A DNA stretch of 64,000 nt from an uncultured Candidatus Saccharibacteria bacterium. Its GTDB lineage: Bacteria; Patescibacteriota; Minisyncoccia; Phycocordibacterales; UBA9973. The position numbers and the translations under genes were made by a program. The DNA lies in NCBI GenBank assembly GCA_964348725.1, contig CAYGDG010000001.1, positions 65,898 through 129,897 of the forward strand. The letters are read 5' to 3'. Positions 30,383-38,461 of this stretch are shown piece by piece. How positions within the stretch are numbered: the first letter of the stretch is position 1; every line of letters begins with the position of its first letter. The notes below the pieces were generated by a model. That model ran no database searches. It had not been told where the DNA came from and worked only from the letters and a program-made list of their open reading frames with translations.

Positions 30383-30489
30383 CAAGATGAACAAAAATGT
30401 CATTACGATCGTATTTGTCATCGCGATGCTGATTTTTCAGGTTTTATACTGGTTGCGCATCATTAATTTTTAGCCTATAATTCTGGCGT

Positions 30490-30717
30490 ATGCATGAAAA
30501 ATTATGGCAGCCTGTGTTGTTATTTTACGCGAAAGCCACCGGCTGGATAGCTTTGCCGATAGTGCTGGCATCCGTCTTCAGCAAGAATTTGCCTGACGCG
30601 GGCCGTATCGCGGCATTCGTCGTAGCGTTCCTCATTTCAATCTGGGGAATTTACCGCGAGATAAAAAAGTACCAGAAAGATATAAACAATACGGAAAACA
30701 AAAATGGCGACAAATAA
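30490..30717 (+). CDS. Small two-TM membrane protein, ATP synthase protein I (AtpI/AtpZ)-like
   Basis: 75 aa with two hydrophobic helices, immediately upstream of and overlapping atpB. The ATG follows TATAAT (30476-30481) by 8 nt. Confidence 0.5.
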   Translation: MHEKLWQPVLLFYAKATGWIALPIVLASVFSKNLPDAGRIAAFVVAFLISIWGIYREIKKYQKDINNTENKNGDK

Positions 30718-31642
30718 TACTGCAAATCAAATAGAGCATACAGAAGAAATTCCGCACGAGGCCGGAGCCGAGCAGGTACAGGGCGGCGCGCATACCCCGC
30801 CGATATACGCCGAGCCACTTTTTCATATTGGAAAATTCCAGGTTACCAATGCACTCCTCACATCATGGCTCGCTGTCATCGTCATCGCCGCGCTCGCATT
30901 TTGGATGCGGAGCAAGATGAAAAAGATTCCCGGCAAGGCCCAGCACATTTTTGAAATCATGCTGGAAGGCGCGATGTCGCTCGTAGACCAGATCACGAAT
31001 GACCGCAAGATCACGCTCAAAATTTTTCCGCTTGTGTTCACGCTATTCGTCTTTATCCTTATCAACAACTGGATAGGCATCATGCCATTTGTCGGCTCCA
31101 TCGGCTATTATGCCTTGCATGACGGGCACAATGTATTCGTGCCTTTCTTCCGCGGGGGAATGGCGGATATCAACACTACGCTCGCCCTTTCCATCGCCAC
31201 TGTCGTCGGCTCAAATGTCTTCGGCGTCCTCGCTATCGGCCTCTGGAAAACTTTCAATAAATATGTTAATCTAAGTGCGCTCGCGTCCATGTTTACAAAA
31301 GTGAGAAAAGACCCGAGCGTGCTCATCGTCTCGCCTATCACATTCTTTGTGGGCCTTATGGAACTCATCGGAGAGATGGCAAAAATAGCCTCGCTGTCAT
31401 TTCGTCTCTTCGGAAACGTCTTCGCCGGCGAAGTGCTCCTCGCATCCATGGCGGCGATATTCGCTTTTGTCGTCCCCGGACCATTTCTTTTTTTGGAAGT
31501 GTTCGTGGGACTCATCCAGGCGCTCATCTTCTCTTTGCTTGCGACCGTGTACTTCACCATAGGGGCGCAAGATCATGGCGAGCATGAAGAACATGATGAG
31601 CAGCACGAGCACAAAGAAGCGCACCAAGTGGCTCGCGCATAA
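30704..31642 (+). CDS. atpB: F0F1 ATP synthase subunit a
   Basis: Five TM helices and the conserved LSFRLFGNVFAGE essential-Arg helix. C-terminal His/Glu-rich tail. Confidence 0.9.
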   Translation: MATNNTANQIEHTEEIPHEAGAEQVQGGAHTPPIYAEPLFHIGKFQVTNALLTSWLAVIVIAALAFWMRSKMKKIPGKAQHIFEIMLEGAMSLVDQITNDRKITLKIFPLVFTLFVFILINNWIGIMPFVGSIGYYALHDGHNVFVPFFRGGMADINTTLALSIATVVGSNVFGVLAIGLWKTFNKYVNLSALASMFTKVRKDPSVLIVSPITFFVGLMELIGEMAKIASLSFRLFGNVFAGEVLLASMAAIFAFVVPGPFLFLEVFVGLIQALIFSLLATVYFTIGAQDHGEHEEHDEQHEHKEAHQVARA

Positions 31643-31711
31643 ATTATTATAAAGTCGAAACTCCGCCACGGCGGATAAAATTATCAATTATAAGTTAATT
31701 ATTTAAAACAT

Positions 31712-31945
31712 ATGGAAGAAACAAATGCAGTAGTAAATATTGTCCCGCTTGCAAAAGCATTGGCTATTGGAATTCCCGGTATTGGAGCCGCTCTCGGTAT
31801 CGGTATGGTCGGCGCGAAGGCCATGGAAGCCATCGGCAGGAATCCTGAGGCTACCGGCAAAGTGCTCGTACCGATGCTTATCGTTTCGGCTTTCGCTGAA
31901 GCAGTGGCTATTTACGGCCTTGTCATCGCGTTCTCTATCAAATAA
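31712..31945 (+). CDS. atpE: F0F1 ATP synthase subunit c
   Basis: 77-aa hairpin proteolipid with [23 protein letters not shown] (ion-binding Glu). Confidence 0.9.
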
Positions 31946-32028
31946 TGATTGGAACCTCAGTGCTCGCCGTGCAAACGGAAAGAGCATTGTGTTTCGCTCA
32001 GTATTAACAGCGAATAATAAAAAACAAA

Positions 32029-32478
32029 ATGCAAGAACTTATCGCCACATTTCATATAGACTGGAAACTGATGCTCGCACAGATTTTTAACTTCGCGCTC
32101 GTCTTCGCCGCGCTCTACCTCATCGCCGCCAAGCCGCTCCGCAAATTGATGGCTGAGCGCACGGAAGAAATCACTAAAGGCCTTGAAGACGCGAAGCAGA
32201 ATGCCGAGAAACTGAAAGCCACCACGGCGGACTACGAAGCCACGCTTTCCAAAGCCCGCACCGAAGCGAATGCCATTTTTGATAAGACGAAGAAAGACGC
32301 CGAAGCAAAGCGCGCTGAAATCCTCGCCCAGGCGCAAGCTGAAATGACGGCCACCCTGGAAAATGGCAGAAAGATTTTGGAAGCCGACAAGGCAAAAGTG
32401 CTCGCTGATGCCAAGAATGAAATCGCTTCACTCGTAATTTCGGCGACTGAAAAGGTCTTGGGAGAAAAGCAGAAATAA
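32029..32478 (+). CDS. atpF: F0F1 ATP synthase subunit b
   Basis: N-terminal TM helix plus a long Ala/Lys/Glu-rich helix. Confidence 0.85.
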   Translation: MQELIATFHIDWKLMLAQIFNFALVFAALYLIAAKPLRKLMAERTEEITKGLEDAKQNAEKLKATTADYEATLSKARTEANAIFDKTKKDAEAKRAEILAQAQAEMTATLENGRKILEADKAKVLADAKNEIASLVISATEKVLGEKQK

Positions 32479-36339: not shown

Positions 36340-36343
36340 AATT

Positions 36344-37696
36344 ATGAACACAGGAACAATCAAAAGAATAATCGGGCCGGTCGTGGATGTGAATTTTGAG
36401 GGCGAAGTGCCGGATATTTATTCGGCTTTGATAGTGAAGAAAGGGGACAAGAACATCGTCCTTGAAGTAGAACAGCACATCGGCGGCAATACTGTACGCA
36501 CGGTCGCTATGGACTCCACGGACGGACTTTCCAGAGGGATGACGGTGTCCAGCACCGGCGGGCCTATCTCTGTGCCTGTGGGCAAGGAAACTTTGGGCAG
36601 AATTTTCAATGTGCTCGGCGAGGCGATAGATGATATGGAAATGAAAGACACCGGCAAGAGAAGCCCGATTCACCGCAAAGCGCCCGAATTCGTTTCGCAG
36701 TCTACGAAAGTAGAAATTTTGGAAACCGGTATTAAAGTTATAGATTTGATTTGTCCTGTTTTGAAAGGAGGAAAAGTCGGTCTCTTTGGAGGCGCGGGCG
36801 TGGGCAAGACTGTCGTCATTCAAGAGCTCATCCACAACATCGCATCAAACCACGGCGGCTACTCCGTCTTTGCGGGTGTCGGTGAAAGGACAAGAGAGGG
36901 TAATGACTTGTATCACGAAATGAAAGATTCTAAAGTTTTGGACAAAGTGGCGATGGTCTTCGGACAGATGAATGAACCGCCGGGCGCTCGCCTGCGCGTC
37001 GCACTTTCCGGACTCACGATGGCCGAGCACTTCCGCGATGCCGAAAATAAAGATGTACTCTTTTTCATAGACAACATTTTCAGATTCACGCAGGCAGGCT
37101 CGGAAGTGTCCGCTTTGCTCGGCCGCATTCCTTCCGCCGTGGGTTACCAGCCGACTCTCGCGACTGAAATGGGAAATCTCCAGGAGCGCATCACTTCTAC
37201 GGACAAAGGCTCGGTCACTTCCGTGCAAGCCGTGTATGTCCCGGCGGACGACCTGACCGACCCAGCGCCAGCGACCACTTTCTCGCACTTGGACTCCACC
37301 GTCGTCTTGAACCGCTCGCTTTCCGAAATCGGAATTTACCCGGCGGTTGACCCATTGGACTCTTCGTCCACCATCCTTGACCCGCACATCGTCGGCAAAG
37401 AACATTACGAGACCGCCCGCGAAGTGCAGAGAATTTTGCAGAGATATAAAGATTTGCAGGACATCATCGCCATCCTCGGTATGGAAGAACTTTCCGAAGA
37501 CGACAAACAGCTCGTCGTCCGCGCCCGCAAAATCCAGAAATTCCTCTCCCAGCCGTTCTTCGTAGCCGAACAGTTCACCGGCTCTGCAGGTCAGTATGTC
37601 CCACTCGCCGACACCATCCGCTCCTTCCGCGAAATATTGGAAGGCAAGCATGATGACAAGGCGGAAGGGGAGTTTTATATGAAGGGGGCTTTGTAA
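36344..37696 (+). CDS. atpD: F0F1 ATP synthase subunit beta
   Basis: P-loop GGAGVGKTV and the DELSEED-like region MEELSEDD. Confidence 0.97.
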
Positions 37697-37733
37697 AAAG
37701 AAAAAACCTTCCGCTAGCTTGTAGCGGAAGGTT
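37691..37733 (-). terminator. Rho-independent terminator oriented for the minus strand (A-run on plus, T-run on minus)
   Basis: AACCTTCCGCTA-CAAGC-TAGCGGAAGGTT, a 12-bp stem. On the plus strand it is followed by CGGATGAG, not a T-run. Confidence 0.6.
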
Positions 37734-37959
37734 CGGATGAGTTGTTCTTTGGTAAATTTTTTATCTTTATTACTGCTATAATTGCGGAAATGAAACCGAG
37801 TATTGCCATTGAAACAAGTAACCAGTGTGAGATTGGTTCATTGTTTCTGTCAAAAAATGGTTCAGTGAACATTCCGCAAAATCCAGTAATCAAAGATGCC
37901 AAAACCCATCTTGTGAGAAAGGACTCTCTTTTTGTAAGAACTGATTGATTAGTTTTCAT
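37714..37959 (-). CDS. Small two-TM membrane protein between atpD and atpC, opposite strand
   Basis: 81 aa with two hydrophobic helices. It has its own TGTTATAAT promoter and a terminator whose stem encodes the last codons. Confidence 0.4.
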   Translation of the reverse strand: MKTNQSVLTKRESFLTRWVLASLITGFCGMFTEPFFDRNNEPISHWLLVSMAILGFISAIIAVIKIKNLPKNNSSEPSATS

Positions 37960-38011
37960 AAGAACAAAATTTAAGGTTAATACTAAATAAAGTATACAAA
38001 ATTATAACAAA

Positions 38012-38461
38012 ATGTCAAGTAAACAATTAAAACTAAAAATAGTCACCCCTGAAAAGCTCATCTTGGAAGAGCTAGTAGAAAGCGTCGCTTTGCCGACCAC
38101 CGAAGGGGAGATAACCATATTGCCTGACCATGTGCCGATAGTCGCAGGATTAAAATCCGGCGATATCGTGGCATTAAAAGATGGCGAGTATATACCGATG
38201 GCATTAGTCGGCGGATTCGTTGAGGTGAAGAAGGGCGAAAGCGGAATGACCGAAGTCGCCATCCTCGCCGACTTCGTAGAACACATCGGCGACATCACCG
38301 AAGAAGCCGTCACCAAAGCCAAAGCCCGTGCCGAAGAACTGCGCAAGCAGGCCGAAAACAAAGAAGTCGTAGACTTCGAACACTTCGCCACCGAGCTGGA
38401 GCGCTCCCTCACCCGCGTCAAAATCGCGGATAAGTGGAAGACGAGGAAGTATAGGAAATAA
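38012..38461 (+). CDS. atpC: F0F1 ATP synthase subunit epsilon
   Basis: N-terminal beta-sandwich (LKLKIVTPEKLILEELVESVALPTTEGEITILPDHVPIV) and a C-terminal helical hairpin. Confidence 0.9.
   Translation: MSSKQLKLKIVTPEKLILEELVESVALPTTEGEITILPDHVPIVAGLKSGDIVALKDGEYIPMALVGGFVEVKKGESGMTEVAILADFVEHIGDITEEAVTKAKARAEELRKQAENKEVVDFEHFATELERSLTRVKIADKWKTRKYRK

Follow-up and report, generated by a model that had tools for sequence, protein, structure and literature searches.

Four AT-rich orphan genes between the ATP synthase genes of an uncultured patescibacterium look like recently acquired passengers

We analyzed a 64,000-nucleotide (nt) stretch of DNA from an uncultured Candidatus Saccharibacteria bacterium (here, the window; all coordinates are positions in it), in which four small, AT-rich open reading frames (ORFs) are lodged between the genes of an F-type ATP synthase operon. 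These ORFs, here called ins116, ins54, ins153, and ins81rev, occupy the atpF-atpH, atpA-atpG, atpG-atpD, and atpD-atpC junctions, respectively. In our judgment it is probable that small foreign genes were acquired on four separate occasions, in this lineage only, at or beside gene borders of an intact atp operon, and that such borders are recurrently invaded in Patescibacteria. The inserts look like recently acquired passenger genes and not like new parts of the enzyme. An earlier, sequence-only reading of the same stretch had offered two explanations, namely, accessory or assembly subunits of the ATP synthase and selfish insertions tolerated within the operon. All of the ORFs that it listed are present where it placed them, and we favor its second explanation, given that the inserts are orphans of alien composition, that they are absent from 160 related loci, and that selfish genes exist at the same junctions elsewhere.

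Four orphan genes at the borders of the atp genes

The three inserts on the strand of the operon begin 3 to 22 nt after the preceding stop codon and finish 4 to 7 nt before the following start codon. ins116 starts 4 nt past the atpF stop codon and ends 7 nt ahead of the atpH start codon; ins54 fills the atpA-atpG gap with linkers of 3 nt and 4 nt, just as the sequence-only reading had it; and ins153, which ends 4 nt ahead of atpD, contributes a GGAGAG motif 5' of the atpD start codon. The insert segments form troughs with GC contents of 0.25 to 0.32, compared with about 0.5 in the atp genes. Likewise, the GC content at third codon positions (GC3) is 0.16 to 0.33 in the inserts and about 0.6 in the atp genes, which bears out the distinct composition noticed earlier. 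When GC3 is followed in blocks of 15 codons, the switch coincides with the ORF borders, and the flanking atp genes show no graded zone. No paralogues of the inserts exist elsewhere in the window. Contigs of the Logan assemblies of two sequencing runs (ERR3094292 and ERR3094302) are 100% identical to the window over positions 31244 to 33751, 35788 to 36738, and 37456 to 38850; the ins81rev junction is covered at 100% identity by an independent Logan contig (L082). A fourth Logan contig has atpA-ins54-atpG and agrees with the window in gene order and in the ins54 product (DNA identity was not computed).

ins81rev lies on the opposite strand. The promoter and terminator of its own that had been claimed from the sequence correspond to a promoter-like 11/12 site and a hairpin of -20 kcal/mol. 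The promoter-like site, which is a consensus match only, is the best one in a 9-kb scan, and its -35 hexamer overlaps the first atpC codons. The hairpin begins 8 nt past the atpD stop codon. Its folding z score is -6.2 for the minus strand, which alone has a U-tract, and -4.5 for the plus strand. Because the plus strand lacks a U-tract, read-through to atpC is plausible, and an atp transcript that reaches atpC is, by geometry, necessarily antisense to ins81rev. The gap between atpD and atpC measures 315 nt in the window versus 6 to 188 nt in relatives. Palindromic spacers are found at the atpD-atpC junction in several relatives as well.

All four inserts are singleton clusters. In a word-indexed search of 5.8 billion protein clusters, ins153, ins116, and ins81rev each retrieved only themselves, and an exhaustive search with phmmer, run for ins153 against 1.84 billion representatives, found only itself, save one short match in a 652-amino-acid (aa) protein; the homologue search for ins54 consisted of a cluster look-up and local tblastn only. 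None of the four has a significant match in Pfam or NCBIfam. Rfam detects only the tRNA above threshold over the region and no RNA element within the inserts. A phage or defense origin was considered and rejected, as there is no match in PHROGs at an E value of ≤0.001 (the best is 0.0066) or in PADLOC at an E value of ≤0.1, no relative of ins153 in IMG/VR, and no relative of ins116 among GenBank phages.

Nevertheless lacking homologues, the inserts are most likely real protein genes and not dead filler, because their ORF length and codon usage exceed null expectations and because ins153 has a predicted fold. When each gap was dinucleotide-shuffled 5,000 times, ORFs of equal or greater length arose with a probability of <2e-4 for ins116 and ins153, 0.0012 for ins54, and 0.015 for ins81rev. 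With a codon model trained on long genes of AT-rich relatives (GC content, 0.345), the score per codon was +0.26 for ins116, +0.31 for ins54, +0.44 for ins153, and +0.29 for ins81rev; held-out real genes have a mean of 0.40 and a 5th percentile of 0.12 to 0.18, and off-frame sequence scores below -0.4. Against stop-free random sequences of the same composition, the codon score is strongest for ins153 (P < 5e-4), followed by ins81rev (P = 0.006), ins54 (P = 0.01 to 0.03), and ins116 (P = 0.02 to 0.03). In addition, ins153 shows a falling GC gradient over the three codon positions (0.36/0.27/0.16), and its AF2 model, built from the single sequence, is a helical bundle with a predicted local distance difference test score (pLDDT) of 80 and a predicted template modeling score (pTM) of 0.73. 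A fold search with this model returned only generic four-helix bundles and no specific match (best E values, 0.086 in PDB and 0.22 in BFVD). The AF2 model of ins116 is a helical membrane protein whose confidence (pLDDT, 63) is too low for use.

The inserts are absent from the relatives of this organism. Scanning the GTDB species representatives with AtpG led to Paceibacteria/Parcubacteria-type metagenome-assembled genomes (phylum Patescibacteria) with a best identity of 69%, and the best identity in JGI metagenomes was 67%; thus, the window represents a lineage without a close sequenced relative. In 160 related atp loci, no tblastn match to any of the four inserts was found (E ≤ 0.01). The closest relatives (59 to 69% AtpG identity) have an otherwise identical operon with compact junctions. 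In the closest dozen, the spacing is 1 to 9 nt at atpF-atpH (except for about 86 nt in one locus, L014), 5 to 39 nt at atpA-atpG, and 35 to 133 nt at atpG-atpD. The sequence-only reading had named such operons, identical except for the missing ORFs, as the first of two observations that would make the ORFs nonfunctional fillers. The operons are indeed of this kind; that fallback, however, does not agree with a codon usage that beats stop-free random sequence and with the confident fold of ins153.

At the border of ins116, the neighboring gene has lost its end. AtpF is 163 aa long in 11 of 12 close relatives and 164 aa in the remaining one, versus 149 aa in the window, where the last 14 residues are missing and the stop codon falls exactly at the compositional border of ins116. 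The insertion therefore appears to have removed 14 C-terminal codons, and the truncation is probably collateral damage of this event. The window AtpF is also more diverged, with a mean identity of 50% compared with 58% among the relatives. In other bacteria, the C terminus of subunit b is its delta-binding end. Because the loss concerns this end, the peripheral stalk may be altered. The N terminus of ins116 ("ETKKVAFNKDFKTLI") was tried as a frameshifted relic of the AtpF tail and rejected, since no frame of the window was among the top hits of a hidden Markov model of the tail when set against 3,000 shuffled controls.

On the other side of ins116, the shortness of AtpH that had been remarked on earlier is real but is a trait of the whole clade: AtpH has 134 to 137 aa in close relatives and 127 aa in the window, and 37 loci at a greater distance have about 130 aa. 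All that is particular to the window is an internal deletion of 9 aa relative to 11 aligned relatives. Across about 50 related Patescibacteria loci, the delta subunit is only about 125 to 137 aa long. Since the OSCP profile is matched only from position 56 on in the window AtpH, part of the canonical N-terminal domain seems to be absent clade-wide. A foreign atpH acquired together with ins116 was considered as well and dismissed, because the identity of AtpH to its relatives is ordinary (44%, with a clade norm of 43.5%) and its GC3 is uniformly intermediate.

Origin of the inserts and alternative explanations

Additional DNA at atp junctions is not restricted to the window. Among the 160 related loci, extra DNA of 250 nt or more was found at atpA-atpG in 18 of 148 loci, at atpG-atpD in 26 of 143, and at atpD-atpC in 10 of 114, as opposed to only 1 of 89 at atpE-atpF; roughly 9 to 18% of related loci thus have an insert at a given F1 junction. 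Of the inserts in the first 80 loci, nearly all exceed their flanks in AT content. Their contents are diverse. Genes of the 23S_rRNA_IVP family (PF05635), which encode four-helix bundles, exist in seven loci (L039, L044, L045, L052, L059, L061, and L089) at five different junctions; PF05635 was confirmed directly by Pfam in L045 and L052, and the other five loci were assigned via BLAST clustering. Mobility and an affinity for the atp operon seem to be properties of this family. Nuclease genes of the GIY-YIG (L040) and PDDEXK_3 (L039 and L040) types, a Bro-N protein (L013), and a cyclophilin (L044) were also identified, and a homologous MNT and HepT toxin-antitoxin pair is located at atpA-atpG in both L026 (9355 to 9986) and L088 (2891 to 3543). 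Furthermore, the relatives' atp junctions harbor many small hydrophobic orphan ORFs, some of them on the opposite strand. These are mutually unrelated, with 92 of 103 clusters from an all-against-all BLAST being singletons, and the idea of one family of small hydrophobic junction ORFs shared across lineages was abandoned on this account.

The genes of the window fall into two classes, a core with a GC3 of 0.5 to 0.63 and a scattered AT-rich class with a GC3 of 0.16 to 0.37. Besides the inserts, the AT-rich class contains a Shedu SduA defense gene beside tRNA-Glu as well as a LemA-family gene and a 270-aa ORF downstream of tRNA-Trp. In the nearest relatives (L002 to L018), the GC3 of the atp genes is 0.13 to 0.46, versus about 0.55 to 0.63 in the core genes of the window; the window lineage is strongly shifted to higher GC relative to its clade. 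As the relatives are AT rich, the codon usage of the inserts is that of sister lineages; it is the host core that has moved to higher GC. Taken together, the inserts have no homologue outside the genome in the collections searched, a composition unlike that of the host core, and an empty site in relatives, as is the case for orphan genes. A horizontal origin from AT-rich sister lineages or from their mobile elements would be consistent with these properties.

Once in place, ins116, ins54, and ins153 would be transcribed with the operon, since they have no convincing promoter of their own and are tightly packed, and they would be translated in series with the atp genes. ins81rev, with its own promoter-like site and terminator, would instead form an autonomous, convergent unit. 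The encoded proteins would be real but would remain passengers outside the enzyme. There are two plausible reasons for their persistence. (i) The essential neighboring genes would survive a deletion only if it were precise. (ii) An open, translated frame would leave the expression of the downstream atp genes uninterrupted.

Several observations weigh against such acquisitions. The nearest relative is a distant one for comparison, with only 69% AtpG identity. No nuclease, integrase, or transposase domain was detected in the four ORFs with Pfam, NCBIfam, PHROGs, or PADLOC, and no donor was found in the phage, IMG/VR, genome, and metagenome collections. The borders of the inserts show no direct, inverted, or terminal repeats and no target-site duplications, with only chance matches of ≤9 nt, and the genes flanking the inserts show no co-conversion tract. 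Because neither border repeats nor nuclease or recombinase domains exist in the window, the mechanism of insertion is one that we infer. The native spacers of the same genome have GC contents of 0.26 to 0.41, equal to those of the inserts, so that composition alone is no proof of foreign origin. The GC contents of the three codon positions are flat in ins116 and ins81rev, a weaker signal than that of ins153, and the near-exact filling of the gaps is tidier than expected of random foreign DNA. On the other side, the codon-usage result speaks against an origin in place, though only weakly so for ins116 and ins54.

The acquisition of passengers could also be part of a more organized process, in which the atp borders, especially atpA-atpG, atpG-atpD, and atpD-atpC, are dedicated landing sites for single-gene cassettes circulating among Patescibacteria, the window being an extreme case with four of them; additionally or alternatively, some of the hydrophobic products might modulate an ATP synthase that may run in reverse in these respiration-less bacteria. 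A mechanistic trace in favor of landing sites comes from one related locus (L064), in which a block of about 1.15 kb with three ORFs lies between atpG and atpD and is flanked by a perfect 29-nt direct repeat (about 8151 to 8179 and 9306 to 9334). The repeat corresponds to the 3' end of atpG (the last 8 codons and the stop codon), and the last ORF of the block ends in the duplicated "SAGMASVS*" tail; it is plausibly an insertion scar. We regard this extended version as doubtful, although the presence of an ATP synthase in bacteria that lack a respiratory chain (PMC11665869) gives it some room.

The inserts might instead serve the ATP synthase in a species-specific way, as accessory, assembly, or regulatory proteins that are retained in the operon for stoichiometric co-expression; they could, for instance, be membrane partners of the a/b/c sector or modulate an enzyme that may run in reverse. 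Three of the four are hydrophobic, the same-strand ones are packed tightly against atp genes, all show a coding signature, and AtpZ and AtpI set a precedent for small membrane proteins in atp operons. Both stalk genes that flank ins116 carry deletions (14 aa in AtpF and 9 aa in AtpH) and AtpF is unusually diverged, which makes a remodeled stalk possible. Moreover, Patescibacteria retain an F-type ATP synthase although they have no respiratory chain (PMC11665869), so that various modes of use are conceivable. Nevertheless, none of the 160 related operons carries any of the inserts, so that they do not co-occur with the atp operon across the lineage, the close relatives have a compact operon without them, and the collections searched hold no homologue, which speaks against the accessory or assembly subunits proposed in the sequence-only reading. 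In other lineages, small hydrophobic ORFs at these junctions are singletons for the most part, and the sites additionally house nuclease and toxin-antitoxin genes, which play no part in the enzyme. Hydrophobic peptides are, besides, the default translation of T-rich DNA, and ins81rev is antisense to the operon. Thus, an enzyme-related function is unlikely, even if one or the other insert may act as a species-specific modulator.

A further alternative is that the inserts arose de novo from expanded AT-rich spacers, as filler frames that are kept open only for ribosome flow and for avoiding polarity and whose protein sequence is unselected. This would fit the match in GC content between inserts and native spacers, the linkers of 3 to 7 nt, the orphan status, and the missing codon-position structure of ins116 and ins81rev; the atpG-atpD spacers of relatives are already 35 to 133 nt long and similarly AT rich. 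However, all four inserts surpass the stop-free random models in codon usage, ins153 very strongly so and with a codon-position gradient and a confident fold in addition. The extra 170 to 490 nt cannot be explained by internal tandem duplication or by a repeat, ins81rev, on the opposite strand and with its own signals, would be of no use in translational coupling, and a truncation of atpF would not be expected from spacer growth. We therefore consider filler frames improbable.

One or more of the small hydrophobic inserts, above all ins81rev and ins54, could encode peptides for addiction or exclusion that resemble type I toxins; atp read-through would then provide the antisense RNA to ins81rev and so stabilize the cassette. 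ins54 is a single-pass peptide of 54 aa, and ins81rev is hydrophobic, comes with an intrinsic terminator and a promoter-like site that is strong, and lies antisense to any atp transcript that runs to atpC; furthermore, the MNT/HepT pair at the atpA-atpG junction of L026 and L088 is a bona fide toxin-antitoxin system. On the other hand, neither peptide matches a toxin family in Pfam, NCBIfam, PHROGs, or PADLOC or an antisense RNA in Rfam, no dedicated antitoxin RNA or protein is evident, and a type I toxin would rarely be as long as 81 aa, making this explanation very unlikely. Finally, chimeric assembly or binning, by which AT-rich fragments from another organism would have been joined into the operon, might be suspected of a metagenome-assembled genome with abrupt compositional switches, but it is hardly credible, because the per-run Logan assemblies of two runs reproduce the junctions, the ORFs suit their gaps in phase and in their start and stop contexts, and four successive joins at gene borders are implausible.

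Core genes, upstream region, and other AT-rich segments

All eight core subunits of the F-type ATP synthase were recognized (Table 1), subunits a, c, b, delta, and epsilon by Pfam and NCBIfam and subunits alpha, gamma, and beta by full-length tblastn matches. Starting from tRNA-Ile and an atpZ-like gene, the order is atpB-E-F-H-A-G-D-C, and the canonical arrangement described by the sequence-only reading is borne out. In one related locus (L010, 8278 to 9665), atpA is seemingly split: tblastn covers residues 2 to 302, and a separate ORF corresponds to residues 344 to 498. This could reflect a frameshift, an assembly error, or an insertion within atpA.

Table 1. Features of the atp region in the window
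Feature	Position	Strand	Evidence or properties
tRNA-Ile(GAT)	30311-30383	+	ARAGORN, Rfam
28-aa ORF	30387-30473	+	ORF only; most likely chance, in spacer
atpZ-like gene, 75 aa, two-helix membrane protein	30490-30717	+	tblastn to relatives
atpB (subunit a)	30704-31642	+	PF00119, 5.6e-38
atpE (subunit c)	31712-31945	+	PF00137, 2.7e-18
atpF (subunit b), 149 aa	32029-32478	+	PF00430, 1e-21
ins116, 116 aa, three hydrophobic segments	32483-32833	+	atpF-atpH; segment GC 0.30; GC3 0.31
atpH (delta), 127 aa	32841-33224	+	PF00213, 4.1e-19, profile positions 56-172
atpA (alpha)	33248-34744	+	tblastn, full length, 79-86% identity to close relatives
ins54, 54 aa, single-pass hydrophobic peptide	34748-34912	+	atpA-atpG; segment GC 0.25; GC3 0.22
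atpG (gamma)	34917-35855	+	tblastn full-length matches, ≤69% identity, 160 loci
ins153, 153 aa, soluble	35878-36339	+	atpG-atpD; segment GC 0.25; GC3 0.16
atpD (beta)	36344-37696	+	tblastn, full length, 82-90% identity to close relatives
Hairpin terminator of ins81rev	37704-37734	-	Terminator scan; -20 kcal/mol
ins81rev, 81 aa, hydrophobic	37714-37959	-	atpD-atpC; segment GC 0.32; GC3 0.33
Promoter-like site of ins81rev	37991-38018	-	TTGACA-16-TATACT, 11/12 sigma-70-like
atpC (epsilon)	38012-38461	+	PF02823, 5.1e-19

The gene upstream of atpB had been called atpI in the sequence-only reading, an assignment for which we found no support. Of the first 80 loci, 28 have a homologue at the corresponding position ahead of atpB, with a best tblastn E value of 2e-14. 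Three of four relatives' copies tested match PF09527 (ATPase_gene1) above threshold with E values of 1e-8 to 1e-10, and the window protein itself does not match this profile even at an E value of ≤1. Judging from these relatives, the gene is a putative AtpZ-type gene that is too diverged for a PF09527 match. A perfect TATAAT, read by eye from the sequence and outside the scoring of the promoter scan, is located at 30477 to 30482, 7 nt before the start codon of the atpZ-like gene, and is preceded by TTGCGC at a distance of 17 nt; these are a possible promoter of the operon, in which case the transcript would be nearly leaderless.

The tRNA-Ile gene upstream of the atp operon represents conserved synteny, seen in about 20 relatives. 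Between it and the atpZ-like gene, the 28-aa ORF pointed out in the sequence-only reading does exist; its status as a gene did not hold up. An ORF of this length is not better than chance (P = 0.08 in dinucleotide shuffles), its codon score of -0.26 resembles that of noncoding sequence, and no counterpart was found by tblastn in the 160 related loci (E ≤ 0.01), so that it is most likely a chance ORF of the spacer. Just 5' of tRNA-Ile, a perfect, spacerless 40-nt palindrome (20 + 20 nt; AAGCGAGGCAAGACCTAACA/TGTTAGGTCTTGCCTCGCTT) is found at 30259 to 30298. It lies downstream of a terminator-like hairpin at about 30200 to 30226, which follows a gene encoding an RRM-type RNA-binding protein.

Two other AT-rich segments of the window adjoin tRNA genes. 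An island with a GC content of about 0.31 (9120 to 11040, minus strand) lies next to tRNA-Glu (11069 to 11142) and contains a gene for a Shedu protein (SduA_N and SduA_C; 9973 to 11040) and an adjacent 286-aa orphan (9120 to 9980); it looks like an acquired defense islet. The second block (48601 to 49999, plus strand) follows tRNA-Trp (48458 to 48529) and comprises a 270-aa ORF with no Pfam match (GC3, 0.18) and a gene for a LemA-family protein (49424 to 49999).

Comparison with known systems

Short, AT-rich "ORFans" of bacteria are reportedly acquired horizontally, as Daubin and Ochman are said to have described in 2004. The inserts resemble them in being short, AT-richer than the host core, without homologues, and absent from the syntenic site in relatives, and the same genome has other compositionally alien accessory genes, such as Shedu. 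They differ in that four of them are found inside a highly conserved operon, one per junction, and not in a genomic island beside a tRNA gene.

In T-even phages, free-standing homing-endonuclease genes reside between conserved genes and spread by "intronless homing." The atp junctions of relatives likewise hold GIY-YIG, PD-(D/E)XK, and 23S_rRNA_IVP genes; the four ORFs of the window, in contrast, have no nuclease domain, co-conversion tract, or target duplication. As for 23S_rRNA_IVP, ins153 is a predicted helical bundle, as are the products of this four-helix-bundle family, and four relatives have a PF05635 gene at the very same atpG-atpD junction. A divergent member of this family was nevertheless rejected, because ins153 has no Pfam match at an E value of ≤0.1, the hhalign probability is 0.5%, and its top 50 structural matches do not include the family and point only to generic four-helix bundles.

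Small hydrophobic proteins are familiar from atp operons in the form of AtpZ and AtpI (PF09527 and PF03899), and the window has an AtpZ-like gene of its own. AtpZ keeps its position and its sequence throughout the clade; the inserts are not conserved anywhere and lie between stalk and F1 genes. Type I toxin peptides share with the inserts their size and hydrophobicity and, in the case of ins81rev, the antisense geometry, but the inserts have no family match and no identified antitoxin RNA.

The literature that was searched contains no description of insertions in Patescibacteria atp operons. The four "hypothetical proteins" in the atp operon of this genome should not be annotated as new subunits of the ATP synthase. 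Our census suggests that small foreign genes can enter even the atp operon of Patescibacteria, at specific junctions. If this is upheld phylum-wide, the junctions would be convenient, alignable spots for catching gene-cassette traffic in unculturable organisms, a traffic that would include small nucleases, 23S-IVS proteins, toxin-antitoxin pairs, and orphans.

Protein-encoding insertions are frequent in the rRNA genes of the candidate phyla radiation/Patescibacteria (PMC11270868; PMC9698310). These are the nearest described parallel within the same phylum. The inserts of the window are located between protein genes and not inside an RNA gene, and they involve no intron-like RNA; what they have in common with the rRNA gene insertions is a patchy, lineage-specific occurrence at fixed positions of conserved, highly expressed loci.

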